DNA of 64,000 nucleotides from Thermodesulfobacteriota bacterium (lineage in GTDB: Bacteria > Desulfobacterota > Desulfobacteria > Desulfobacterales > SURF-7). The notes under the pieces were generated by a model. It ran no database searches. It worked only from the letters and a program-made list of their open reading frames with translations, and had not been told where the DNA came from. The stretch covers positions 23,626 to 87,625 of the forward strand of contig JBMORA010000033.1 of NCBI GenBank assembly GCA_049320885.1. The letters are read 5' to 3'. The number at the start of each line of letters is the position of its first letter. Position 1 is the stretch's first letter. Positions 15,609 through 47,003 of this stretch are shown here, one piece after another. The position numbers and the translations under genes were made by a program.

Positions 15609-15956
15609 TTATCGTACCTGTTTGGATAGGGGGAAAACCTGAAAATTGACTTGAATGACCTGATCCGCGGACTCGTCCCGGCAGGCCATCATCAACAATT
15701 CCTTACGCAACGCCGCGATCAGCTCCTTGATGCGTTGGATCCGGCTGCCGCTGACGCCCAAGGTCAGTCCAGTGATGTCCCGCTCAGCGGATGGATGGCG
15801 ATCGATGGATTCGGCGGTGAGCCGCAGCATTTCCTTGTGAAAATTGGCAACGGCCAAGGAATGAACTTCCGGCCCGGTGGTGACTGCCTGATCGGCCTGC
15901 TGCCATTTTCCCTCCCCGTCCTGTTGGATGAGGCCGAGTTCCGCGAGCAGTTTCAA
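15609..15956 (-). pseudogene. C-terminal half of a TIGR02147/DUF4423-family protein (N-terminal half missing)
   Basis: LAVANFHKEMLRLTAESIDRHPSAERDITGLTLGVS...VIQVNFQVFPLS matches my recollection of the C-terminal half of that roughly 270-aa family. No N-terminal half was found upstream in any frame. Confidence 0.55.
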
Positions 15957-19121: not shown

Positions 19122-19622
19122 TTGCTAACGAACGTTCGTATGCGAACGAACCATCCCGAACCGAAATATTTCATTTGCTCCCTGGCTTCCCAGGCTGTCC
19201 GCAAGATGGTGGCGTATTACAACAGCGTCCTGGAACCCCTGGGATTGACGGCCCAGCAGGTGATGGCCCTGGGGGTGCTCTGGCGGGGGGAAAATATGAG
19301 TCTGGGGGAATTCGCCGGCCGGGCCGGCATCGGCAAGGCCGCCGCCGTCACCATGATTCAGCGCCTGGAAAACATGCAACTGGTCCGGCGCAAGCCGCAT
19401 CCGGAAGACGCCCGCCTGAATGTGCTGACCCTGACCGAAAAGGCGCGGGGCCTGGCACCCGGACTCCTGGCAACCGGCGGCAAACTGGAGCGCTCCATCG
19501 AGGCCGCCGTGGGACCGGAAACCATGGCAGCCCTGATCAAAGGCCTCACCACCATCTGCGAACTGGATATCGACCACCTGAAATCCGCATCCAAAAATCG
19601 TGAACAAAGGAACAGCTCATGA
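19122..19622 (+). CDS. MarR-family transcriptional regulator
   Basis: LGLTAQQVMALGVLW...MSLGEFAGRAGIGKAAAVTMIQRLENMQLVRRKPHPEDARL is a winged-HTH MarR pattern. Confidence 0.85.
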   Translation: MLTNVRMRTNHPEPKYFICSLASQAVRKMVAYYNSVLEPLGLTAQQVMALGVLWRGENMSLGEFAGRAGIGKAAAVTMIQRLENMQLVRRKPHPEDARLNVLTLTEKARGLAPGLLATGGKLERSIEAAVGPETMAALIKGLTTICELDIDHLKSASKNREQRNSS

Positions 19623-20323
19623 ATCCCGTTTCGTCAGCTCTTGCCCAAGGACAGCGGGCTCTTTCCGAATATCAATCCAAGGAACTGCTCCGCGCCTATG
19701 ACATCCCCGTAACCCGGGAAATTCTCACCGAACATGTGGCGGACGCCATCCGCGCCGCCGGGGAAATCGGCTATCCGGTTGCCTTGAAAGCCTGCGCGCC
19801 GGAACTGATGCACAAGAGCGAATCCGGGGCCGTCGCCCTGAATTTGAAAAACGAGGAAGACATCCGGGAAGCCCATGAACGGATCAGCGCCGGGCTGGCG
19901 CCGGCCAAAACGGCCATGCTGGTGCAGGAAATGATCGCGGGTCAGCGGGAGCTGGTGATCGGACTGACCCGCGATCCCCAATTCGGTCCCTGCGTCATGC
20001 TGGGGCTGGGCGGGATTCTGACCGAAATCCTTCAGGACACCGTCTTCCGGGCGGCGCCGTTCGATCTCATCGAGGCCCGGGACATGGTCCGGGAACTGCG
20101 CGGGAAGGCCATCCTGGAGGCCTTTCGCGGTCAACGGCCGGCGGATCTCGATACTCTTCTGCGGGCCCTGGTTGCCGTGGGCCGGATCGGTCTGGAACAA
20201 CCGGCCGTGACCGAGCTGGATATCAACCCGTTGATCATCGATCCTGCCGGGCGTATCGTGGCCGTGGACGCCCTTGTGGTCCTGAACCCGAATCCGGCGG
20301 CAGCAGGAGGGCAGAACACATGA
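19619..20323 (+). CDS. ADP-forming acyl-CoA synthetase, ATP-grasp (beta-like) subunit
   Basis: LSEYQSKELLRAYDIPV...YPVALK...SESGAV is an ATP-grasp pattern. ATGA overlaps with both flanking genes. Confidence 0.8.
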   Translation: MNPVSSALAQGQRALSEYQSKELLRAYDIPVTREILTEHVADAIRAAGEIGYPVALKACAPELMHKSESGAVALNLKNEEDIREAHERISAGLAPAKTAMLVQEMIAGQRELVIGLTRDPQFGPCVMLGLGGILTEILQDTVFRAAPFDLIEARDMVRELRGKAILEAFRGQRPADLDTLLRALVAVGRIGLEQPAVTELDINPLIIDPAGRIVAVDALVVLNPNPAAAGGQNT

Positions 20324-21792
20324 TTCCGTCGATCCAGGAAAATCCGCTTTACGCCATCGCCAATCCGGGCAGCATCGCCTTCTTCGGCGCGTCCAACAAT
20401 TTCAGCGCCATGGGAACCAATATCCTCCAATCCGTTCAGTCCCTGGGATATGCCGGCCGGATCTATCCGGTCCATCCCAAGGAAAAACGGGTCATGAACC
20501 TCCCGGCCCACGCGGATGTGGCCGATCTCCCGGAAACGCCGGACATGGCCTTCATCGTTCTGCCCACGGATATCGTCATTCCGACACTGGAGGCCTGCGG
20601 CCGTAAGGGCATCCGCCATGCCGTGATCGTTTCCGCCGGATTTAACGAGGTGGGCGGCAAAGGCGTCGACCTGCAGCAAGAACTGCTCCGGGTGGCCCGG
20701 CAATACGGCATCCGTTTTTCCGGACCGAACTGCATCGGCGTGGTGAACCCGCATCACCGCTTGAACGCCACTTTCCTGCCCTATGAAGCTCGGCCGGGGT
20801 TCATCGGCATCGCTTCCCAGAGCGGCAGCTTCGTCACCCAGATGTTCAACTACCTGGATCGCTTCGGGCTGGGCTTCAGCACCGGCTTCAGCCTGGGCAA
20901 TGAAGCCGATATCGATCTGGTGGACGCCATCGAATATCTGGGAGCCTGCCCGCACACCCGGGTCATCGCCATGTATGTGGAATCCATCCGCCGGGGCAGG
21001 GCCTTCATCGAAGCCGCGAGATCCATCATCCCCCGGAAGCCGGTGGTGGCCTTTTATGTGGGCGGCTCCGAAGCCGGCAAGCGCGCCTGTTTTTCCCATA
21101 CCGGCGCGCTGGCCGGATCGGACCGGCTGTATGACGGCATTTTCCGGCAAAGCGGGGTGATCCGGGCCCGCTCCATCGAGGAAATGTTCGATTTCTGTTA
21201 CGCCTTCGGCGCTTCGCCCCCGCCCCGGGGAAACCGGGTCATCATTCAAACCCATTCGGGCGGACCGGGGGCGGCCGCGGCCGACGCCGGGGGTCGGGCC
21301 GGGCTGGCGCTGCCGGCCTTGACAGATGAAACCGTCCGGAAACTGGCGCCGTATATGCCCCACACCGGCAGCAGCGCCAATCCCATCGATCTCACCTATA
21401 CCAAAAACCCCCTGGACTATTTCCACACCATTCCCGATATCCTGCTGGAGGATGCCGATGCGGATGCGCTGCTGGTGTATTTTCTGGCCTCCTCCGGCAT
21501 GGTCCGCCGCGCCCTGGAGGGCCTGGGAATCCCCCAGGAAGAATCCGCGGCCCATGCGGAAAAAATCATCGCCGATCAATGCAAGGCCATCGCTTCCCTC
21601 GTGGAAAAGCACCGGAAACCACTCATCGGCTATTCGTTCCTGACCCGGGAGAATCCTTTTATCCGGGGCCTCCAGGATCTCGGCGTGCCGGTCCTGGGCA
21701 GCCCGGAACGGGCCGCGCGGGCCGCCGGGGCCATGGCAACCTACGTGCAGCTGAAGCAGAAAATTCTGGAAAGCGAGAAATCTTCGAGCTGA
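20320..21792 (+). CDS. ADP-forming acyl-CoA synthetase, CoA-binding / CoA-ligase (alpha-like) subunit
   Basis: IAFFGASNN...YPVHPKE...GPNCIGV...SQSGSF...SHTGALAG (phospho-His loop) is typical of the NDP-forming acyl-CoA synthetase family. Confidence 0.8.
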   Translation: MIPSIQENPLYAIANPGSIAFFGASNNFSAMGTNILQSVQSLGYAGRIYPVHPKEKRVMNLPAHADVADLPETPDMAFIVLPTDIVIPTLEACGRKGIRHAVIVSAGFNEVGGKGVDLQQELLRVARQYGIRFSGPNCIGVVNPHHRLNATFLPYEARPGFIGIASQSGSFVTQMFNYLDRFGLGFSTGFSLGNEADIDLVDAIEYLGACPHTRVIAMYVESIRRGRAFIEAARSIIPRKPVVAFYVGGSEAGKRACFSHTGALAGSDRLYDGIFRQSGVIRARSIEEMFDFCYAFGASPPPRGNRVIIQTHSGGPGAAAADAGGRAGLALPALTDETVRKLAPYMPHTGSSANPIDLTYTKNPLDYFHTIPDILLEDADADALLVYFLASSGMVRRALEGLGIPQEESAAHAEKIIADQCKAIASLVEKHRKPLIGYSFLTRENPFIRGLQDLGVPVLGSPERAARAAGAMATYVQLKQKILESEKSSS

Positions 21793-21934
21793 AATCGAAA
21801 ACGGATAAGTGTAGCGAGTGGTTGAATAGATCAGTGATGACGTTTGACCAAGATCTTCATTTTTATGATCGGTTCACCCCTTCACCCCTCCCATTGTCGA
21901 ACCAGGAAATAGGCGCGTGCCGAGAATTCGGGGT

Positions 21935-21976
21935 TTGACTTATTAAATGACCATGGTATTATGACCTTGTCATAAT
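21935..21976 (+). promoter_or_regulatory. Sigma-70-like promoter with palindromic operator for the Phd/VapC operon
   Basis: TTGACT (21935-21940), 16-nt spacer, TATTAT (21957-21962). Perfect palindrome ATTATGAC-CTT-GTCATAAT (21958-21976) overlaps the -10 element. Confidence 0.5.
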
Positions 21977-22033
21977 GGTCAGTCCAAGGCCTGAAGGACC
22001 AGTTGCGGGGAAGCGTAAAGAGGAATCGGCAAC

Positions 22034-22267
22034 ATGGAAAAGCAGATATCGAAATCACAATTTAAACCTAGGGTTTTGCAACTTTTCAGGGAAATTGAAC
22101 GAACGGGCAGGGCGCTGATCATCACCGACCGGGGCAAACCGGTGCTGAAGATCGAACCCTATGCTGAAAAGCCGTCCGACATCTTGAAAATACTTAGAAA
22201 TACGGTTATCAAATATGAAGATCCAACCGCACCTGTTGGCCTGGATGACTGGGAATCGCTAACATGA
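22034..22267 (+). CDS. Type II antitoxin, Phd/YefM family
   Basis: 77 aa. SKSQFKPRVLQLFREIERTGRALIITDRGKPVLKIEPY is the Phd/YefM N-terminal pattern. 4-nt overlap with the toxin gene. Confidence 0.85.
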   Translation: MEKQISKSQFKPRVLQLFREIERTGRALIITDRGKPVLKIEPYAEKPSDILKILRNTVIKYEDPTAPVGLDDWESLT

Positions 22268-22659
22268 TCGTCCTCGATACGCATGCTTGGGTATGGTATG
22301 TCAGCAACCCCGAAAATTTTTCCCGAAAAGCAAAAAAAGCGATAGATGACGCGCTGGATCAGCAACAAATCTATATTTCCTCAATCAGCGCATGGGAAAT
22401 TGCGATGCTGGCTTCCAAAAAACGGTTGGAACTGGCTCTCACAGTAGAGGACTGGATTGCAAAATCAGAAAAATTACCTTTCTTTCATTTTATTCCGGTT
22501 GATAATGCCATTGCGGTTAAGTCGGTTGGTTTACCCCAGCCTTTCCATAATGATCCGGCAGACCGGATCATTATAGCGACCGCGTTATTATTGGGTGCGG
22601 CGGTCATCACCAAAGATGAAAAAATACGGAATTACCCGCATGTAAGAACCATCTGGTAG
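22264..22659 (+). CDS. vapC: Type II toxin VapC (PIN-domain ribonuclease)
   Basis: MIVLDTHAWVWY..., SAWEIA and DPADRIIIATA contain the PIN acidic residues. Confidence 0.9.
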   Translation: MIVLDTHAWVWYVSNPENFSRKAKKAIDDALDQQQIYISSISAWEIAMLASKKRLELALTVEDWIAKSEKLPFFHFIPVDNAIAVKSVGLPQPFHNDPADRIIIATALLLGAAVITKDEKIRNYPHVRTIW

Positions 22660-22796
22660 AATTACAACACGAAAAAAGTCCCGCTTACTTTCAACTAATC
22701 GTATGTTCAGAGGGAAACGGTTTAGCGGCGTTACACCACCCACTGCGTTCAAAAAGAAATGGACATAACCTGATTAACGGATATAATGGGAAGCAG

Positions 22797-22915
22797 GGGC
22801 ATGTGGTCGCATCTTAAAAATTAATTATTTTCTTTCCGATCCGATCGACCCGCACTATCTTAACGGCACCACATTATCAATACTTGATATTTTAGATGCG
22901 ACCCTTCTGTTTCCT
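22797..22915. repeat. Repeat A, left copy (about 119 bp; partner at 27440-27558)
   Basis: Hand alignment to 27440-27558 gives about 15 mismatches in 119 nt. It carries a short RHS-like remnant, a stop, and the first few codons of an orphan cassette on the minus strand. Confidence 0.75.
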
Positions 22916-22959
22916 CATTATCAATACTTGATATTTTAGATGCGACCCTTCTGTTTCCT
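22872..22959. repeat. Exact 44-bp tandem duplication (2 copies)
   Basis: CATTATCAATACTTGATATTTTAGATGCGACCCTTCTGTTTCCT occurs at 22872-22915 and again at 22916-22959. Confidence 0.9.
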
Positions 22960-23109
22960 TTCCGTTTTGTTGCCGTAGTGATCCGTGACAGTGAGAAGAT
23001 CCGATGCGGCATCATAGGCATAAAAGGTCGAAAAGACCGCTTCGCGCTCGTCGGCTTCATTGTATTCGTCAACTTCGATGATCCTGCCGAGATAGTCGCG
23101 TTTCTCCAC
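22936..23109 (-). pseudogene. RHS core fragment, about 57 codons (duplicate of the N-terminus of the 23791-26052 ORF), truncated by junction with repeat A
   Basis: The minus strand reads (V)EKRDYLGRIIEVDEYNEADE...DLLTVTDHYGNKTE, then the out-of-context residues RKQKGRI and a stop at 22938-22936. Confidence 0.7.
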
Positions 23110-23271
23110 TTTCCGGTTATTGTCCGGGTCGGTGATGTTTGGAAAATCACATCTTCCGCTCTTAAAACGCTTTTTTCAGCCCCAAAAACATCATTCTAAG
23201 ACCTCAAAATGGTCTGTTTTTTATCCTAACCAATTGATAGTAATAGGTTCTACTTGGTCCGACAAGAAATC
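22959..23271. repeat. Repeat B, copy 1 (313 bp; partner at 25902-26214)
   Basis: I count 8 mismatches in 313 nt against 25902-26214, with no indels. Confidence 0.9.
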
Positions 23272-23342
23272 CAGAAATCGTTTGCAAGCAGTTACCTATG
23301 TCCGGCAAGAAATCAAAATCATTCTCTATTGGCCTGTCTTCT

Positions 23343-23798
23343 TCACTTCATCTTAATTAATTTACCATTATTTTTATCTATACGCCATCTTGTTGTATTG
23401 CTATCTCTATTGGTGTGCTCTATAAACTCAAGAACATTATCCTTGCTATAAAAGTATTTAAAAATATCTGTTATCTTATCTTCGACTTGTCCGTTATTTA
23501 AATTCCACTTTTGATGTTTTTCATAATAATCGATAGTACCATCTTTATTGTAGTAAACAGTTAAATAAGCGTCTTTATAATCCGCTATTTCTTCTGAAGT
23601 CATCTCATAACTAGGATCAGGTTCAATTGGTATTGTCATAAGATTAGCTCTTTTATAGTAATATGGGCCACCGATGCGATCGCTATGTGCATTGCATGAA
23701 AAATTTATCAATAAAACTAAAAATATAAAAAAAAAGATACAAATATTAAATTTTAGCATTGAAAATTTTCCTCTCTTATAATGTAGCTTCTTATTCAT
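23343..23798 (-). CDS. Putative immunity protein 1, predicted secreted/lipoprotein
   Basis: AT-rich ORF directly after the RHS toxin tip. The ATG at 23798 overlaps the RHS stop (ATGAATAA); an alternative ATG at 23759 has a GAGAGGA Shine-Dalgarno. N-terminus ...MLKFNICIFFFIFLVLLINFSCNAHS is a signal peptide with a Cys after the hydrophobic core. Confidence 0.6.
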   Translation of the reverse strand: MNKKLHYKRGKFSMLKFNICIFFFIFLVLLINFSCNAHSDRIGGPYYYKRANLMTIPIEPDPSYEMTSEEIADYKDAYLTVYYNKDGTIDYYEKHQKWNLNNGQVEDKITDIFKYFYSKDNVLEFIEHTNRDSNTTRWRIDKNNGKLIKMK

Positions 23799-26052
23799 TT
23801 TTCCGAGAACGTTCCTGGGCTTTTTCATTAAGATGATTGACCATATCGGATTGAAATGTTTGGCATTCTTGAGCAAATGAATCAACTCCAATTCTATAGC
23901 TTCCCTCAAATGAGTGCGCATAGTTCTCCATCTCTTGTTTAGCTTCTTCACAAGTCATCTCAGAATTTCTTATTTCTAAATTATACACTCTATCCGCTGG
24001 CTTCCCCTCATATGGATCATGATCTTCTTCTCCGCCAGGAAAAACACCGACACCGTTTACAATTCCTCTAACGCCAGTCAGCGCTTCATAGTTACTGACC
24101 CGCTTCTCAGGGTACAATCCCCAACTTTTTACATCAGGAGTTCTAGGATTAGCTTCGGACCAATAATGACCCCACTTGGTTCTCTCTGGATCTTTTTTAA
24201 ACAGATCAGGATCAATTTGCTTAAATTCAATATCTGTGCAAACCACAATCGATTCTGAAACCGATTGACTGCTATTCCCCTCACTATTATCGTTTCCTGA
24301 TTCACTCGATCCATTTGAGTTGGAGCCACCAAAAAGTCCTGCCACACCTCGACAGAAATTTCCTATAGCTCCGGATATTCCTTCGCCGTCGTCCCAAGAA
24401 TGGCCAGTCGGATCAATATATTTTAGCGGATTGTTTCTTGCATAAGCATATCGGTTCAAACCTTGCGGATCATAGTAATTAGGCCAAATATTATCCGCAC
24501 TAACAAACACCCCCAATATCGGATCATACAACCGCGCCCTATAGTTGTAGAGCCCGATCTCGGCATCCTGCTCCTGGTCCGTGAACTTATAGTTCGATAC
24601 GGTCTGATGATTGCCGGAGCGGTTCTGGCCGAAGGGCATGTATTGGGTGGTTTCGCTGCCGGTAGCGGGATTGCCGCTTGCGTCGGTGACGATGGTGGAG
24701 CTGCCGAGGTGGTCCTTGTGATAATAATGGATTTCTTCCCCTTCTCCGGTATTCGTTATCTTCGCGATCCGCTGGTTGTTGGCGAATATATATCTTACCG
24801 GCACGCCGTTGACAATCTCGTATTCCCTGGTGACGTAGAGGGTCGTACCGGCGGTTGTCTCTTTCCTGACCCTGCTGTTGTCCGCATCATACAAGAGGTG
24901 GGTTGTACGGGTCTCGCCGTTTTTGGTGTAATCGATCTTCTCCGCCATGTTGTCGATGCTGAAGGTGATCTCGCGCACGGCCGGAGCGGTGATGTCGCTC
25001 AAATCCCAGCCCCTGGTCATGTTGCCTTTGCGGTCGTATTCGAATTGATAGGACGCGCCGTTCCGCTTGATGGTTTTCACCGCATGGGGGTGGGTAGAAT
25101 CATAACCGTATTCCATGACGAAATCGGCCGGGTATTTCGGATCGCGTTCCGGGGCCTCCTGCTTCAAGCGATGCAGGCTGTCGTAATTGTAATACGCTTC
25201 AAGCTGATTGGGATTATCCCGGATAAACCGGACGTCTCCCGCCGGAGAATATTGGTATTCCAATTCCTGCAAAATGCCGGCTTCAGAAACAGTATATGTC
25301 TGGGCCGACGTCATGCGCAGGGAATACGGATCGTACCCGTAATTCGTATAGACGACCCCACCGCCGTATTTTATGGAACCGACACTGCCGGACGGATTGT
25401 ACCCCTCGAACTCGGCATAACCAACATTCCTGACCAGCCCGGTTTTAGGGTAATAGTCGTAGGTCACCGTCCCGAGCTCATCAGGCCACAGGATGCTCCG
25501 CAATTTTCCGGCGACATCGTATTGGTATTTAATCAGATAGCTTTGCTCGCCGATCGCCTTGCCGGTTTTGACGACCCGGCCCATGCTGTCATATTCATAG
25601 GCCGCCATAACCGTTGCGGGGGTCCGGTGATCCTCCGAGTAATGCAGCCGGCCGACGCCGTTTTCCGGGGATGTGTCGTAATGAAATTCCACATACCCTT
25701 TATCGACGCCGCCGGATAGATAGGCACGCCGGGTGATCCGGCCCAGGGCGTCCGGCGTGAACGCAACGGATTCCACCACCGCATCGCCTTCGCCCAGCAG
25801 ATACTGGCCGGTCAGCACGCCGTTGCGGTTATATTCATACCGCCGGTTGCCCATGTCCGGATCGCTCATCCGGGTCTTGCGGCCCAGCGTATCGTAAATC
25901 ATTTCCGTTTTGTTGCCGTAGTGATCCGTGACAGTGAGAAGATCCGATGCGGCATCATAGGCATAAAAGGTCGAAAAAACCGCTTCGCGCTCGTCGGCTT
26001 CATTGTATTCGTCAACTTCGATGATCCTGCCGAGATAGTCGCGTTTCTCCAC
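23791..26052 (-). CDS. RHS/YD-repeat protein, N-terminally truncated, with RHS-associated core end and a 203-aa unassigned C-terminal toxin domain
   Basis: Many YD repeats (YDxxGR/GN..., YEYD, YxYD). Core end is ...YRARLYDPILGVFVSADNIWPNYYDPQGLNRYAYARNNPLKYIDPTGH. Only GTG (26052) is available as a start, and the in-frame stop lies 37 codons upstream (26164-26166). No N-terminal delivery domain. Confidence 0.9.
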   Translation of the reverse strand: MEKRDYLGRIIEVDEYNEADEREAVFSTFYAYDAASDLLTVTDHYGNKTEMIYDTLGRKTRMSDPDMGNRRYEYNRNGVLTGQYLLGEGDAVVESVAFTPDALGRITRRAYLSGGVDKGYVEFHYDTSPENGVGRLHYSEDHRTPATVMAAYEYDSMGRVVKTGKAIGEQSYLIKYQYDVAGKLRSILWPDELGTVTYDYYPKTGLVRNVGYAEFEGYNPSGSVGSIKYGGGVVYTNYGYDPYSLRMTSAQTYTVSEAGILQELEYQYSPAGDVRFIRDNPNQLEAYYNYDSLHRLKQEAPERDPKYPADFVMEYGYDSTHPHAVKTIKRNGASYQFEYDRKGNMTRGWDLSDITAPAVREITFSIDNMAEKIDYTKNGETRTTHLLYDADNSRVRKETTAGTTLYVTREYEIVNGVPVRYIFANNQRIAKITNTGEGEEIHYYHKDHLGSSTIVTDASGNPATGSETTQYMPFGQNRSGNHQTVSNYKFTDQEQDAEIGLYNYRARLYDPILGVFVSADNIWPNYYDPQGLNRYAYARNNPLKYIDPTGHSWDDGEGISGAIGNFCRGVAGLFGGSNSNGSSESGNDNSEGNSSQSVSESIVVCTDIEFKQIDPDLFKKDPERTKWGHYWSEANPRTPDVKSWGLYPEKRVSNYEALTGVRGIVNGVGVFPGGEEDHDPYEGKPADRVYNLEIRNSEMTCEEAKQEMENYAHSFEGSYRIGVDSFAQECQTFQSDMVNHLNEKAQERSRKNE

Positions 26053-26214
26053 TTTCCGGTTATTGTCCGGGTCGGTGATGTTTGGAAAATCACATCTTCC
26101 GTTCTTAAAACGCTTTTTCCAGCCCCCAAAACATCGTTCTAAGACCCCAAAGTGGCCTGTTTTTTATCCTAACCAATTGATAGTAATAGGTTCTACTTGG
26201 TCCGACAAGAAATC
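25902..26214. repeat. Repeat B, copy 2 (313 bp)
   Basis: Partner of 22959-23271. It covers the first roughly 50 codons of the 753-aa RHS ORF plus about 160 nt upstream of its GTG. Confidence 0.9.
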
Positions 26215-26261
26215 GGAGCGCAGTACCGCACGCGGCGGGCTCGGCACAAGGCATTCGTCGG

Positions 26262-26582
26262 TTAAAAGGGAGACTCTTCTGCATCACGATTCCACCCCCA
26301 ATCTTTTAGCATTTCAATAAAACTTTGCCTATCGTAGGGTTCTTGGCCATACGAATTATCGATAATCGATACTCCATATCCCATGTTAATAATTTCATTT
26401 GTAAATAATTTAACAGAGTCAAATTTATTAACGATAAGCATGCCATTAGGTGGCCCGAAATCCTTTACTAATAATTCTGCGAATATTTGGTCACCGGATG
26501 GCAGCTTCAATCTATAAGGTGTGACTATTATAAAGCCTATATCTTCTGCAGCCAATTGCCACCTTTTAATTATATCACTCAT
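26262..26582 (-). CDS. Putative immunity protein 2 (cytoplasmic, acidic)
   Basis: 106-aa AT-rich ORF 18 nt downstream of RHS tip 2, preceded by GAGGA. No signal peptide. Confidence 0.6.
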   Translation of the reverse strand: MSDIIKRWQLAAEDIGFIIVTPYRLKLPSGDQIFAELLVKDFGPPNGMLIVNKFDSVKLFTNEIINMGYGVSIIDNSYGQEPYDRQSFIEMLKDWGWNRDAEESPF

Positions 26583-26600
26583 AATATTACGTCCTCACGA

Positions 26601-27461
26601 TTATCTGATAGGAATATGTCTTACAGGGCCAACATGTCCGTGCCAAATATTGATATTCCTATCAGGATGTATTTCAGGGCCTCTTACCGTATTTTCTGGA
26701 AAAGGATCTTCAAGTTGTTTATTCAACTCTTTATAAGTACTCATATCATCAGCAGAAATGCCGCCTTTCTTTTTATCTTGCTTAGCCATTTCTACTAATG
26801 CCTGTTTTTCATCACTATGTTTTCCACATTCAGTGTCAGTCGAGCCTTGATTTTGTTTGACTTGAGGCAAACTTTCAAGAAGATTATAAAGATCCAATGT
26901 GGCCGCGCCTGTCATGAGTCCTGCAGCGAGAATATCACCGAAAGGTAATGGGCCATCCATAATAGCCATATACCCCGCAATAGGAGCTGCTGCTTGCAGA
27001 TAAAATTCACCCGTTGGATCAATCAGGTTCACCGGATTATTCAGGACATATCCATACAGATCAGTATCCCCACCGTCAAAAAGGATCGGATCTTTAGCGG
27101 TCCATCGACCTGTCTCCGGGTCATAGTCGCGGTAGCCGAATCGCACCAGCCCGGTGTCCCGGTCATGCAGGCCGCCGGCAAATCCGAACGGAATTGTGAA
27201 GGCGGGGTTCGTGTCCGCGAGTATATACCCGAAGGCGTCGTAGTCAACTGTTTTGATGAGATTGCCTAACGCATCCGTCACCGCGCGTAAGGACCCCACT
27301 TGATCGTAGAGGAGATAGTAGCGCTGGCCGGAGCGGGTCAGGGAGACGGGCAGGCGGCTGTCCGCGTATTCCAGGCGCAGGATCAGGTTGTCGGCGCCAT
27401 CATAAACCGCCAGAAGTTGTGTCAACCCCTGCCAGGGCGGGGGCATGGGGTCACATCTCAA
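26601..27461 (-). CDS. Orphan RHS C-terminal cassette: RHS-associated core end plus a 134-aa unassigned toxin domain
   Basis: ...YDAFGYILADTNPAFTIPFGFAGGLHDRDTGLVRFGYRDYDPETGRWTAKDPILFDGGDTDLYGYVLNNPVNLIDPTGE, then a divergent AT-rich tail. The only possible starts are TTG 27461 or ATG 27446, and an in-frame TAA lies two codons upstream. Confidence 0.85.
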   Translation of the reverse strand: MRCDPMPPPWQGLTQLLAVYDGADNLILRLEYADSRLPVSLTRSGQRYYLLYDQVGSLRAVTDALGNLIKTVDYDAFGYILADTNPAFTIPFGFAGGLHDRDTGLVRFGYRDYDPETGRWTAKDPILFDGGDTDLYGYVLNNPVNLIDPTGEFYLQAAAPIAGYMAIMDGPLPFGDILAAGLMTGAATLDLYNLLESLPQVKQNQGSTDTECGKHSDEKQALVEMAKQDKKKGGISADDMSTYKELNKQLEDPFPENTVRGPEIHPDRNINIWHGHVGPVRHIPIR

Positions 27462-27558
27462 AATTTAAGTATTTTCTTTCCGATCTGATCGACTCGCGCT
27501 ATCTTAGCGGCACCACCATATCAATCCTTAATATTGTAGATGCGACCGTTCTGTTTCC
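27440..27558. repeat. Repeat A, right copy
   Basis: Partner of 22797-22915. On the minus strand it ends in the first codons of the 26601-27461 ORF. Confidence 0.75.
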
Positions 27559-27726
27559 CCCGCCGCCGTATTTTATGAGCATTTTCAGGTCCGCGGAACT
27601 TCAAGGATTGAATCCTGTCGAGAAAACCATCGAAGACGCCAGGACTTTGCGCCAAGGTAAAAATGATGATAGGGTCGGATTCGAATTGGCAGCCTAATTT
27701 TCAAAGAGCCAAACTGTTACGAAAAG

Positions 27727-36441: not shown

Positions 36442-36873
36442 ATGACCATCGCTAATATATTGCTGGTTGACGACGAAGTCCCATTCGTGGAGGCCATTCA
36501 AAAACGTCTCGTCAAGAGGGAACTCCATGTCCTCTCCGCCCATAGCGGCAAGGAAGCCTTGGCATTGCTGGAAAAATCCAAGGACACCGAAGTTGTCATC
36601 CTGGACGTCAAAATGCCGGAAATGGACGGAATCCAAACCCTGACGGAAATCAAAAAACGCCATCCCCTCGTGGAGGTGATCATGCTCACCGGGCATGCCA
36701 CGGTGGAATCCGCCATCGATGGAATGAAGCAGGGCGCCTATGACTACCTGATGAAGCCTTGCGACATGGATATCCTCATCACCAAGGTCAAGGAGGCCGC
36801 GGACAAGAAAAGAAAGCATGAGGATAAAATCGTCGAGGCGCGCATGAAGGAAATCACCCAGCGCATGGCGTAA
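36442..36873 (+). CDS. Single-domain response regulator (receiver only) RR1
   Basis: ILLVDDE...VVILDVKMPEMDG...VIMLTGHA...YDYLMKP. No output domain. Confidence 0.85.
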   Translation: MTIANILLVDDEVPFVEAIQKRLVKRELHVLSAHSGKEALALLEKSKDTEVVILDVKMPEMDGIQTLTEIKKRHPLVEVIMLTGHATVESAIDGMKQGAYDYLMKPCDMDILITKVKEAADKKRKHEDKIVEARMKEITQRMA

Positions 36874-36884
36874 GGACCCGGGGT

Positions 36885-37307
36885 ATGACGGCACAGTCAA
36901 CAACAACACGGAATTCGAGACAAAAGCCCATCAGGCTGCTGTTGGTGGACGATGAAATCGCCTACGCCAACGTGCTGGCCAACCGTCTCGAAAAACGGGG
37001 CTGCCGGGTGGTGAAAAGCTACAGCGGCACCGAAGCCGTCCGTGCTCTTCGCCATCAGGAATTCGATGTGGCGGTTCTGGACTTGAAAATGGAAGACATG
37101 AGCGGCATCGAAGTGCTGAAGATTTTCAAAAAACTGGCGCCCGAAATGGAAGTCATCATGCTCACCGGCCATGGTTCCGAAACAGCGGCCAGGGAAGGCA
37201 TGGAAACCGGCGCTTTTGATTATCTTACCAAGCCATGTGAAATAGACGAATTGCTGCCGAAAATCACGGCGGCCTATCAGGCGAAACAAGGAAGCATGGA
37301 AGGATGA
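36885..37307 (+). CDS. Single-domain response regulator RR2
   Basis: LLLVDDE...VAVLDLKMEDMSG...VIMLTGHG...FDYLTKP. Confidence 0.85.
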   Translation: MTAQSTTTRNSRQKPIRLLLVDDEIAYANVLANRLEKRGCRVVKSYSGTEAVRALRHQEFDVAVLDLKMEDMSGIEVLKIFKKLAPEMEVIMLTGHGSETAAREGMETGAFDYLTKPCEIDELLPKITAAYQAKQGSMEG

Positions 37308-37392
37308 ATCCCCCTTGCCGGGGGACGACGGTCACCCATGGCCGCAACAACGGCAACGGAAGATTCAAAGAACGTGAGGAGAGACGGAAGCA

Positions 37393-37791
37393 ATGGAATC
37401 CATTACGGTGCTGCTGGTGGATGACGAGGAACGTTTTGTCACCTCAAATGCAAAACTGCTGAATAAGTTGGGATTTAGAGTTCTGACCGCCATGAGCGGG
37501 GATGCGGCCATACAAATCCTGGAAAGCAATGACGTGGATGTGGCCGTTGTGGATGTCAAGATGCCGGGCATGGATGGAATCACCCTGCTGACCGTCATGA
37601 AAAAACGATTCCCCTTGGTGGAAGTGGTGATGCTCACCGGGAACGCCACGTTTGAATCCGCTGTTTCCGGTCTGAAAATCGGCGCCAGTGATTATCTCAT
37701 GAAGCCGGCGGATCTGGACGAACTGGTTCTGAAGATACGGGAGGCGAATGAAAAACGCAAAATCCAGCTGGAAAAAACCCGCCCGCGTTAA
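37393..37791 (+). CDS. Single-domain response regulator RR3
   Basis: VLLVDDE...VAVVDVKMPGMDG...VVMLTGNA...SDYLMKP. Confidence 0.85.
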   Translation: MESITVLLVDDEERFVTSNAKLLNKLGFRVLTAMSGDAAIQILESNDVDVAVVDVKMPGMDGITLLTVMKKRFPLVEVVMLTGNATFESAVSGLKIGASDYLMKPADLDELVLKIREANEKRKIQLEKTRPR

Positions 37792-37836
37792 TGGAGACGG
37801 GGACAGCTTCCCCGGGAAAGGGATCGAGGTGCGTAA

Positions 37837-38253
37837 ATGAAAGTTCTATTCGTCGACGATGAGTCCGTTTTTCTGGATGTCATTCTCCGTCGCATGAAAA
37901 AACGCAATATTGACGCCCATGGCGCAACCGACGGTGATCGGGCCATCGAACTGATGGAAAAAAACAATTTCGATGTCGCGGTTCTCGATGTCAAAATGCC
38001 CGGGAGCAGAAGCGGCATTGAATTGCTGAAGGAGATTAAAGTTCGTTGGCCTCTCATCGAAGTGATCATGCTCACCGGCCACGCCATGCTCGAGGCAGCC
38101 AGAGACGGCATGGAAAACGGGGCGTTCGACTATATCGTCAAGCCGGCGGACACCGACGAACTGTTCTATAAAATCAATGACGCTTATCAGAAGAAGTCCC
38201 TGCAGGAAATGAAAATCAGGCATATCGATAGTATCATGAAGGACAAGAAATAA
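37837..38253 (+). CDS. Single-domain response regulator RR4
   Basis: VLFVDDE...VAVLDVKMPGSRSG...VIMLTGHA...FDYIVKP. Confidence 0.85.
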   Translation: MKVLFVDDESVFLDVILRRMKKRNIDAHGATDGDRAIELMEKNNFDVAVLDVKMPGSRSGIELLKEIKVRWPLIEVIMLTGHAMLEAARDGMENGAFDYIVKPADTDELFYKINDAYQKKSLQEMKIRHIDSIMKDKK

Positions 38254-46595: not shown

Positions 46596-47003
46596 ATGAA
46601 CTTGATGCTTGTCGATGATGAGGAGCGCTTTCTGGAGACCACCCGGAAATTGCTCGAAAAAAAAGGCTACCGGGTCGTCACGGCCACTAACGGCGCCGAG
46701 GCCATGCAACTGCTCAACAGCCAAACGGTTCACGTGGTCATCCTGGATGTCAAAATGCCCGGGAAGGACGGCAATACCGTCTTAAAAGAAATCAAAAGCC
46801 AGTTTCCCCTGGTGGAAGTCATCATGCTGACCGGTCATGCCACCATGGAATCCGCCATTGACGGTCTGAAATTCGGCGCCACCGACTACCTGACCAAACC
46901 CGCGGATATGGAGTTGCTGATTCAAAAAGCCGAGGATGCCTATGAAAAAAGGCTCCGTCATGAAGAAAGAATTCAAAAGGAGGTTCCGCATGCAATTCTT
47001 TAA
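46596..47003 (+). CDS. Single-domain response regulator RR5
   Basis: LMLVDDE...VVILDVKMPGKDG...VIMLTGHA...TDYLTKP. Closely resembles RR1-RR4. Confidence 0.85.
   Translation: MNLMLVDDEERFLETTRKLLEKKGYRVVTATNGAEAMQLLNSQTVHVVILDVKMPGKDGNTVLKEIKSQFPLVEVIMLTGHATMESAIDGLKFGATDYLTKPADMELLIQKAEDAYEKRLRHEERIQKEVPHAIL

Follow-up and report, generated by a model that had tools for sequence, protein, structure and literature searches.

The low-GC insert at 21.8-27.7 kb of the window (the whole 64-kb stretch of DNA that was analysed) is probably horizontally acquired DNA, in which a displaced, partly decayed array of orphan RHS toxin cassettes lies beside a Phd-VapC module; its immunity genes are the likeliest reason for the array's retention. 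Read along the minus strand, the first cassette opens with leader A and continues with the final 142 aa of a teneurin-like YD shell, after which come toxin 2 and immunity 2. The second opens with leader B, carries the final 551 aa of a different RHS shell and closes with toxin 1 and immunity 1. Behind these stand a B-type stub and then an A-type stub, their bodies lost. The features are collected in Table 1.

Table 1. Features of the low-GC island, with window coordinates
Feature	Position	Strand	Evidence
Phd/YefM-like antitoxin gene, 77 aa	22034..22267	+	Pfam PF02604, E 4e-6, 26.9 bits (Pfam cut-off 29.8 bits)
PIN-domain VapC toxin gene, 131 aa	22264..22659	+	Pfam PF01850, E 5e-20; GC 0.44
Repeat A', left copy	22793..22956	-	Repeat families D2, D3; inverted repeat GGTCGCATCT/AGATGCGACC; three-frame translation
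Repeat B', left copy	22956..23271	-	Non-RHS leader plus first 51 RHS codons
Putative immunity gene 1, 151 aa from ATG at 23798	~23343..23798	-	Position and sequence reading
753-aa RHS fragment ORF	23791-26052	-	TIGR03696 end at aa 551, '..DPTGH'
Toxin 1 tail	23794..24399	-	83 distant homologs
RHS1 core fragment, final 551 aa of RHS shell	24400..26052	-	RHS_repeat, TIGR03696, NF041261
Repeat B, middle copy	25899..26214	-	Leader plus beginning of RHS1 ORF
Immunity gene 2 (putative), 106 aa	26262..26582	-	L081 homolog, 28% identity, E 1e-12
286-aa RHS tip ORF	26601-27461	-	TIGR03696 end at aa 151, '..DPTGE'
Toxin 2 tail, 135 aa	26604..27008	-	52% identity to L081 positions 50-271
RHS tip 2, final 142 aa of teneurin-like YD shell	27009..27446	-	TEN_YD-shell, TIGR03696
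Repeat A, right copy	27437..27558	-	87% identity to 22793-22914
Possible RHS1-type remnant, 20 nt ('IKYGGGG')	27558..27577	-	19/20 bases match 25356-25375

The insert spans 5.9 kb with housekeeping genes on both sides, and is bordered by an acetyl-CoA synthetase gene and a 147-aa ORF. GC drops from about 0.62 to 0.28-0.46, unevenly: the RHS-core segments were found at 0.54-0.58, the toxin tails at 0.40-0.42, and the immunity ORFs at 0.28 (immunity 1) and 0.36. It contains one Phd/VapC pair, nested repeats and, on the minus strand, two RHS genes that have lost their 5' parts; each of these runs through the RHS core motif into a variable toxin tail, and a small gene comes next. An earlier note on this DNA had described a low-GC island made of a TA module and orphan RHS cassettes between high-GC housekeeping flanks. 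The GC profile, the ORF list and the Pfam and NCBIfam matches bore out the island, its set of ORFs and its flanks, the Pfam-matched neighbours being housekeeping or regulatory. The absences reported there held as well: PAAR, VgrG, T6SS, integrase and transposase genes were absent among the Pfam-matched neighbours (the other ORFs of the window were read by eye), and the 64-kb window contained no tRNA and no full-length rhs gene. No Rfam match was obtained at 21-29 kb, and terminator matches did not exceed the shuffled expectation. An integron or attC cassette array was rejected, since no integrase turned up among the Pfam-matched neighbours; Rfam matched neither repeat A nor repeat B.

That the layout is an assembly artefact or a chimeric join in a metagenome-assembled contig was considered extremely unlikely. 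The source contig is 111 kb long and its housekeeping proteins are database singletons, so that it is possibly a MAG, and RHS repeats are a frequent cause of broken or muddled assemblies; however, such an error would have to join the island cleanly to high-GC housekeeping DNA at both ends, the repeats are short, with 9 and 16 substitutions between their copies, and complete genomes contain real arrays of similar layout.

The antitoxin gene precedes vapC and overlaps it by 4 nt. This is the arrangement of type II Phd/YefM-VapC pairs, two small overlapping genes of which the second has a strong PIN-domain match, and it differs from them in that the antitoxin match lies below the Pfam cut-off. 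The TIGR01552 match of the antitoxin gene was also weak, and its GC is 0.46. As an addiction module, the pair probably aids retention of the island.

The shorter RHS gene, tip 2, matches only positions 760-892 of the 909 in TEN_YD-shell. Homology within its family, which numbers 4797 homologs, begins immediately after repeat A. Full-length relatives come from Desulfobacterales, are 2,000-3,200 aa long, and carry a Sec signal, TTR, FN-plug, NHL and YD-shell; their ends share 70-80% identity with tip 2. Among related loci, the full-length tip matches range from 64 to 80% identity, the best match being 77-80% identical across these loci and 5.8 billion protein clusters, a collection that includes the source contig's own proteins. 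Bacterial teneurin-like proteins, a family found in Thermodesulfobacteriota including Desulfosudis oleivorans, have polymorphic C-terminal toxins followed by immunity genes (PMC13018210, 'Ancestral neuronal receptors are bacterial accessory toxins'). They are defined by TTR, FN-plug, NHL and YD-shell in one superfold with an N-terminal export signal. Tip 2 resembles their shell ends at 64-80% identity, but keeps the last 142 aa of the shell only, with TTR, FN-plug, NHL and the export signal gone. It is a fragment derived from this family and not a member protein.

The toxin 2 tail has two hydrophobic helices and then a domain of ~70 aa with the motifs DPFP..N.VR and HGHVG.V.HIP. It gave no Pfam match and no PDB sequence match, and its AF2 model from a single sequence was unusable (pLDDT 46). 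The immunity 2 ORF begins 19 nt past the toxin 2 stop, and this adjacency recurs in one metagenome contig (L081), where an immunity-2 homolog stands directly after a toxin-2 homolog.

The second RHS gene starts with GTG and encodes the fragment RHS1, whose aa 2 corresponds to aa 349 in a homolog of 1174 aa and to aa 437 in one of 1182 aa. The absence of an N-terminal domain from both RHS ORFs, claimed previously, was confirmed by homolog alignment and domain matches. Among the 5.8 billion protein clusters, the best non-self match of RHS1 was 42% identical. Its relatives carry DUF6443, TcdB_midN and FG-GAP, and the shell is of the DUF6443/TcdB-type lineage. The toxin 1 tail consists of a Gly/Ser/Asn-rich linker and a ~115-aa domain. 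The family of this domain has no name; its invariant residues include His, Asp and Cys, and toxin 1 keeps all 12 of them. The AF2 model of toxin 1 was confident (pLDDT 91.5), and the fold search found no PDB neighbour for it. Pfam, NCBIfam and PDB sequence searches and a word-indexed search were all empty, and a literature search with the motif returned physics papers only. Assignment as a Neprosin was rejected; 11 of 27 relatives gave weak matches, the best at E 1.3e-4, and the fold search gave no backing. Both toxin reading frames are intact, which would be unexpected for a long-dead relic and counts against the preferred reading.

The ATG of immunity 1 overlaps the toxin 1 stop, and its N-terminus resembles that of a lipoprotein or of a protein with a signal peptide (MNKKLHYKRGKFSMLKFNICIFFFIFLVLLINFSC). 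Pfam and NCBIfam gave no match for it, no homolog occurred in 81 loci, and its putative role is assigned from position. Since immunity 1 looks exported, toxin 1 would act outside the cytoplasm. Neutralisation of the adjacent tails is likewise a putative role for both small genes.

The nested repeats allowed the history of the island to be considered. The two copies of repeat B (316 nt) differ by 9 mismatches (97.2% identity), with a longest exact run of 123 nt. Repeat A (22793-22914 versus 27437-27558; 122 nt, 16 mismatches, longest exact run 16 nt) is known from these two copies only, so its boundaries carry no information; neither the rest of the window nor the 80 related loci contained a further copy. 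The A' copy holds a tandem duplication of a 44-nt unit of repeat A and ends in an ATG opening a 17-codon stub (MPLLPIISVNQVMSISF, then a stop). From the junction sequences, B' joins A' directly, giving a 57-codon stub ORF (22936-23109, minus strand). Some 110-160 nt of repeat B is non-RHS leader, and RHS homology begins near 26085. Repeat A was also considered as a structured RNA, a terminator or a MITE, and was rejected as such because it had no Rfam match and its fold z-scores were inconsistent, ranging from -0.4 to -3.7 between copies and strands. The repeat comparison and ORFs reproduced the minus-strand order of cassettes, repeats and stubs given previously. The RHS remnant placed upstream of the right repeat A comes down to a possible trace of only ~20 nt, with a stop codon just upstream.

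Because the exact run shared by B and B' is 123 nt, recombination between them should still be possible and could delete or amplify the RHS1 cassette, while A and A', sharing at most 16 nt, would effectively be unable to recombine. The order A..B..B'..A', with the outer pair at 87% and the inner pair at 97% identity, would fit two successive insertions or duplications, the outer (A) event being older than the inner (B) event, an order read from two repeat pairs only. The leader-to-codon-1 junction of RHS1 is duplicated in B', and the truncation of RHS1 is therefore older than the duplication. This argues against the view that a main RHS locus resident here was wrecked in place, leaving the 753-aa ORF as the 3' half of its gene after the 5' half was lost on arrival of the tip-2 cassette. 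The 551 aa of core, more than in any short orphan of the tip-2 family (~85-355 aa), and the RHS1-type trace upstream of the right repeat A could be explained in this way. However, RHS1 has a GC of 0.54 against 0.62 in the flanks and sits inside foreign DNA, and N-terminal fragments are missing throughout the window; a wrecked resident locus was deemed quite unlikely.

A displaced array is consistent with the finding that the cassettes derive from two RHS lineages that are not related, tip 2 and RHS1 being 29% identical over the core end. A single main locus thus cannot serve both cassettes. Neither ORF nor the scanned neighbours contained a domain of T6SS PAAR-Rhs effectors, which are marked by a PAAR or VgrG-binding N-terminus or by a T6SS, VgrG or chaperone gene close by; part of the window was read by eye. 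For the tip-2 cassette the absence of PAAR, VgrG and T6SS genes is uninformative, since its full-length relatives are Sec-exported teneurin-like proteins.

The anatomy of the cassettes is that of the orphan rhs-CT/immunity arrays of enterobacteria (Poole 2011, PMC3150448; Koskiniemi 2014, PMC3967940), as the earlier note had proposed. Both ORFs keep only the 3' core, which closes with the PxxxxDPxG(L/H/E) motif and is followed by a variable tail and, immediately downstream, a small gene. As in the orphan rhs-CT/rhsI of Salmonella, E. coli, Dickeya and Serratia (PMC3150448, PMC3967940, PMC10539506), the tails are low in GC and there are direct repeats able to mediate deletion or duplication. 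In contrast to these, no main rhs sharing the core lies upstream within the 64-kb window, there is no T6SS context, two unrelated core lineages are present (one cassette with 551 aa of core), and each fragment has a non-RHS leader repeat, A or B, in front of it. The orphan cdiA-CT/cdiI modules and Neisseria maf/tps arrays are also promoterless toxin-tail/immunity pairs with short homology to a main toxin gene, and are thought to be a recombination stock or an immunity stock (PMC3150448, PMC4436062); they differ in carrier family and delivery route, and they adjoin their main gene.

A recombination reservoir, with full-length genes of both lineages elsewhere in the genome into which the cassettes are swapped via the retained core, was judged possible but of rather low probability. 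It is the established role of orphan rhs in Salmonella, where cassettes are swapped into main genes via retained core (PMC3967940, PMC3150448). Core homology is retained in both cassettes (142 aa and 551 aa), tips inside related arrays reach 96% DNA identity, and both toxin ORFs are uninterrupted. However, two separate main genes would be needed, and among the 5.8 billion clusters, the source contig's own proteins included, no protein exceeded 42% for RHS1 or about 80% for tip 2. A genome scan with RHS1 had no match, and the genome collections, whose scan returns did not include the window's own locus, likewise yielded no near-identical core or recombination partner. The suggestion that the main locus lies elsewhere finds no support in these collections for this reason, though it may still hold for the source genome itself; a search for further full-length rhs genes did find the teneurin-like relatives of tip 2, but no near-identical partner in the collections.

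Orphan cassettes are routine in this family and, by sequence comparison, common in related sulfate-reducing bacteria. Eighty related loci, nearly all from genomes of Desulfobacterales and other Desulfobacterota, held 116 tips, 47 of them full-length and 44 short orphans, with up to 11 tips in one array. Main-plus-orphan layouts were seen in loci L010, L014, L022, L057, L059 and L073; L036 and L028 have orphans without a main gene within 10 kb upstream. Arrays of this kind, of whose study in such organisms the earlier note was not aware, are consequently not rare (44 of 116 tips), but they do seem undescribed: the words orphan, cassette and recombination are absent from the 2026 paper on bacterial teneurin-like toxins (PMC13018210), whereas the related loci are full of such cassettes.

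Self-expression from internal starts, as TA-like modules acting without delivery, has a precedent in the orphan Rhs of Salmonella (PMC7043789). Repeat A provides tip 2 with an ATG at 27446 (MPPPW...). This start lies five codons inside the ORF as listed and is identical to the start of database entry P0129, so the claim that both RHS ORFs lack a normal ATG applies to the 753-aa ORF and not to tip 2. The island already has one TA pair, and the databases contain thousands of tip-only ORFs of 170-490 aa. Self-expression was nevertheless considered unlikely. A clear ribosome-binding site is absent before either ORF, as had been read from the sequence earlier, promoter-like matches were not enriched (16 against 10.8 +/- 3.1 expected from shuffling), and the exported appearance of immunity 1 implies an action of toxin 1 outside the cytoplasm. 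It is also doubtful, and a little more so, that tip-plus-toxin genes form a free-standing class in which portable leaders A, supplying the ATG, and B permit carrier-free expression as toxin/immunity or addiction modules. If this were true, the thousands of short RHS-tip ORFs in Desulfobacterales would be working genes through which teneurin-like toxins diversify.

Under the preferred reading, a displaced array kept for immunity, neither toxin should be deliverable, since the signal peptide and plug have been lost together with the greater part of the shell. The loss would amount to ~1,900 aa for the tip-2 cassette and at least 350-440 aa for the RHS1 cassette. The surviving function is probably that of the two immunity genes, which would guard the cell against neighbours deploying these toxins. 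Cassettes from different RHS lineages can meet in one small island away from any carrier gene, and such a mixed-lineage island fits the keeping of immunity genes for defence after the weapon has been lost. Two uncharacterised toxin domains are flagged, each with a candidate immunity partner, and one with a confident predicted fold that has no solved relative. Orphan cassettes, a pattern described chiefly for the T6SS Rhs and CDI systems of Proteobacteria, extend to the Sec-exported teneurin-like toxins of sulfate-reducing Desulfobacterales.

The earlier note's account of the island was found to be accurate, apart from small corrections; its features are listed in the table. The mean GC content of the window was 0.56 and that of the genes flanking the island was 0.57 to 0.62. 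The drop across 21.8 to 27.7 kb was uneven, with values of 0.28 and 0.36 for the immunity ORFs, 0.40 to 0.42 for the toxin tails, 0.44 to 0.46 for the toxin-antitoxin (TA) genes, and 0.54 to 0.58 for the RHS-core segments. Neighbors with a Pfam match were all housekeeping or regulatory, the remaining ORFs of the window being read by eye, and no tRNA was found in the 64-kb window.

Features of the island and its end flanks, with minus-strand elements in reading order
Feature	Position	Strand	Description
ADP-forming acetyl-CoA synthetase, two subunits	19619-21792		End of left flank
Phd/YefM-like gene		+	Pfam score below cutoff; overlaps PIN/VapC gene
PIN/VapC gene		+	Strong match
RHS trace		-	20 nt, resembles a segment from inside RHS1
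Repeat A	27437-27558	-	
Tip 2, 286-aa ORF	26601-27461	-	RHS core end, first 151 aa (..DPTGE); 135-aa tail (toxin 2)
Immunity 2 candidate, 106-aa ORF	26262-26582	-	
Repeat B	25899-26214	-	
RHS1, 753-aa ORF	23791-26052	-	RHS core, first 551 aa (..DPTGH); 202-aa tail (toxin 1)
Putative immunity 1, roughly 151-aa ORF	about 23343-23798	-	Signal-peptide-like N terminus
Repeat B', second copy	22956-23271	-	Ends after 51 RHS codons, fused straight to A'
Repeat A', second copy	22793-22914	-	44-nt unit doubled; terminal ATG opens 17-codon stub
147-aa ORF, GNAT acetyltransferase, OmpA-family protein, hisC			Right flank, from island outward

The core ends of tip 2 and RHS1 were only 29% identical, and by sequence the two are assigned to different lineages. 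Homologs of tip 2 numbered 4,797, and the best 120 of these were all 170 to 490 aa long and aligned to the tip only (51 to 77% identity). A genome scan gave 79 loci, almost all in Desulfobacterales or elsewhere in Desulfobacterota, with genera including Desulfosudis, Desulfosarcina, Desulfoluna, Desulfatitalea, Desulfatirhabdium, and Desulfobacula. Full-length relatives carried Sec-type signal peptides at the N terminus, as well as TTR, FN-plug, NHL, and YD-shell domains, and the family is that of the bacterial teneurin-like toxins, reported in 2026 (PMC13018210). The earlier note had seen no PAAR/VgrG/T6SS or other export partner in the window. For the tip 2 cassette a T6SS is not the missing partner: since the full-length relatives are Sec-signal-bearing teneurin-like proteins, what is missing is about 1,900 aa of the same protein. 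One such relative, of 2,664 aa (Desulfoluna limicola chromosome, L021 2780-10774), had a Pretoxin-HINT/intein-like domain at aa 1002 to 1133, in the N-terminal half and well upstream of the YD shell.

Residue 2 of RHS1 aligned with residue 349 of a 1,174-aa homolog and residue 437 of a 1,182-aa homolog; therefore, at least one-third of the shell and the entire N-terminal region are absent. Relatives carried DUF6443, TcdB_toxin_midN, and FG-GAP domains. The closest nonself match among 5.8 billion protein clusters was 42% identical, and no relative turned up in any of the 185,579 species genomes scanned. Neither truncated protein retains the parts on which export and encapsulation of RHS or teneurin-like toxins depend.

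The toxin 1 tail had no sequence match in Pfam, NCBIfam, or PDB. An exhaustive HMMER search recovered 83 distant relatives. The domain, of roughly 115 aa, was C-terminal in most of these, and its carriers included RHS proteins, eCIS-core (DUF4157) proteins, and a secreted protein that also has an M23 peptidase domain. All 12 invariant alignment columns, including a His, an Asp, and a Cys, were retained in the window copy. The family motifs were YGHWW.E, SYGWWP, G.LNG, DPHHG, and QNC.TFQ (window 23794-24264, minus strand; alignment of toxin 1 relatives). An AlphaFold (AF2) model built from the alignment reached a pLDDT of 91.5 and a pTM of 0.85, and Foldseek against PDB returned nothing at an E value of <1; weak Neprosin matches were seen in 11 of 27 family members. 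The tail belongs to an unnamed family of C-terminal toxin domains, and its confidently predicted fold is unmatched in PDB. Action in the periplasm is suggested because the downstream ORF looks exported and one relative carries the M23 domain.

The last 70 aa of toxin 2 shared 52% identity with the end of a truncated ORF on metagenome contig OEAS01023225.1 (L081), and the next gene there was 28% identical (E value, 1e-12) to the 106-aa ORF. This conserved adjacency supports the prediction that toxin 2 and the 106-aa ORF are a real toxin-immunity pair. On the same contig (L081 1-2538), these homologs were followed by a further cassette, in whose ORF ..NNPVKYTDPMG precedes a different tail, and additional small ORFs came next; this is a second polymorphic-toxin array.

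The repeat order is nested, A..B..B'..A'. The inner copies (316 nt) had 9 differences (97% identity) and an exact run of up to 123 nt; the outer copies (122 nt) had 16 differences (87% identity) and an exact run of up to 16 nt. Recombination would still be possible for B/B', not for A/A'. The nested order and these identities fit two successive events, the outer being older. Such events could have been either insertion of circular DNA by a single crossover or duplication followed by deletion. Repeat A has a 10-nt terminal inverted repeat (GGTCGCATCT/AGATGCGACC), and the tandem duplication of its 44-nt unit (window 22869-22956, 98% identity) is confined to the left copy.

No recombination-competent partner core was found in the 5.8 billion clusters or 185,579 species genomes, a search that lay outside the island's own genome, whose assembly is perhaps incomplete. 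All eight tested window proteins present in a collection of 15 billion sequences, including CarB, PurF, and adenosylhomocysteinase, were singletons at 90% identity, and the organism is therefore without a close sequenced relative. The most economical reading is that a displaced orphan array was acquired horizontally along with the TA pair. Its immunity genes would be the main reason for its present retention, and slow decay is proposed because of the two stubs.

Elsewhere in the window, a 115-aa ORF (15609-15956, minus strand) between apbE and a glutamine amidotransferase gene, in a stretch slightly lower in GC (0.56), matched only positions 57 to 165 of the 165-position DUF4423 model and is possibly a truncated gene. 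A 153-nt repeat occurred in five copies (36646-38184 and 46788-46940; 61 to 71% identical to the reference copy), located at or adjoining three tandem response-regulator ORFs (36885-38253) and at one further site; the copies are probably paralogous coding sequence.

Tips were counted in the 79 scan loci plus one Desulfonema ishimotonii locus. Among the 116 tips, 47 had an upstream open frame of 800 aa or more (mostly 1,800 to 3,000 aa), and 44 had one of <200 aa. Layouts included a main gene with one or two orphans after it and arrays of tips alone, as many as 11, in alternation with small ORFs; in other loci, such as L036 and L028, no main gene preceded the orphans within 10 kb. The D. ishimotonii locus (L001 1-21383; BEXT01000001.1, 1150281-1171663) had an alternating series of small ORFs and at least 11 teneurin-like shell-tip ORFs (164 to 475 aa); the tip copies were 62 to 96% identical in DNA to the reference copy, and a DDE transposase gene lay near the upstream end of the array. 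In L037 (3256-10438) and L052 (8023-10420), homology to a full-length teneurin-like protein extended upstream of short tips in separate alignment pieces, and these loci resemble main genes disrupted by frameshifts or stop codons. The words orphan, cassette, and recombination are absent from the paper on the teneurin-like toxins (PMC13018210), which does report immunity genes downstream of them. The points that stand out are the abundance in Desulfobacterales of teneurin-like orphan arrays, which seem to be undescribed, the unnamed toxin 1 domain with its unmatched predicted fold, and, in this organism, a mixed-lineage array without a carrier gene.
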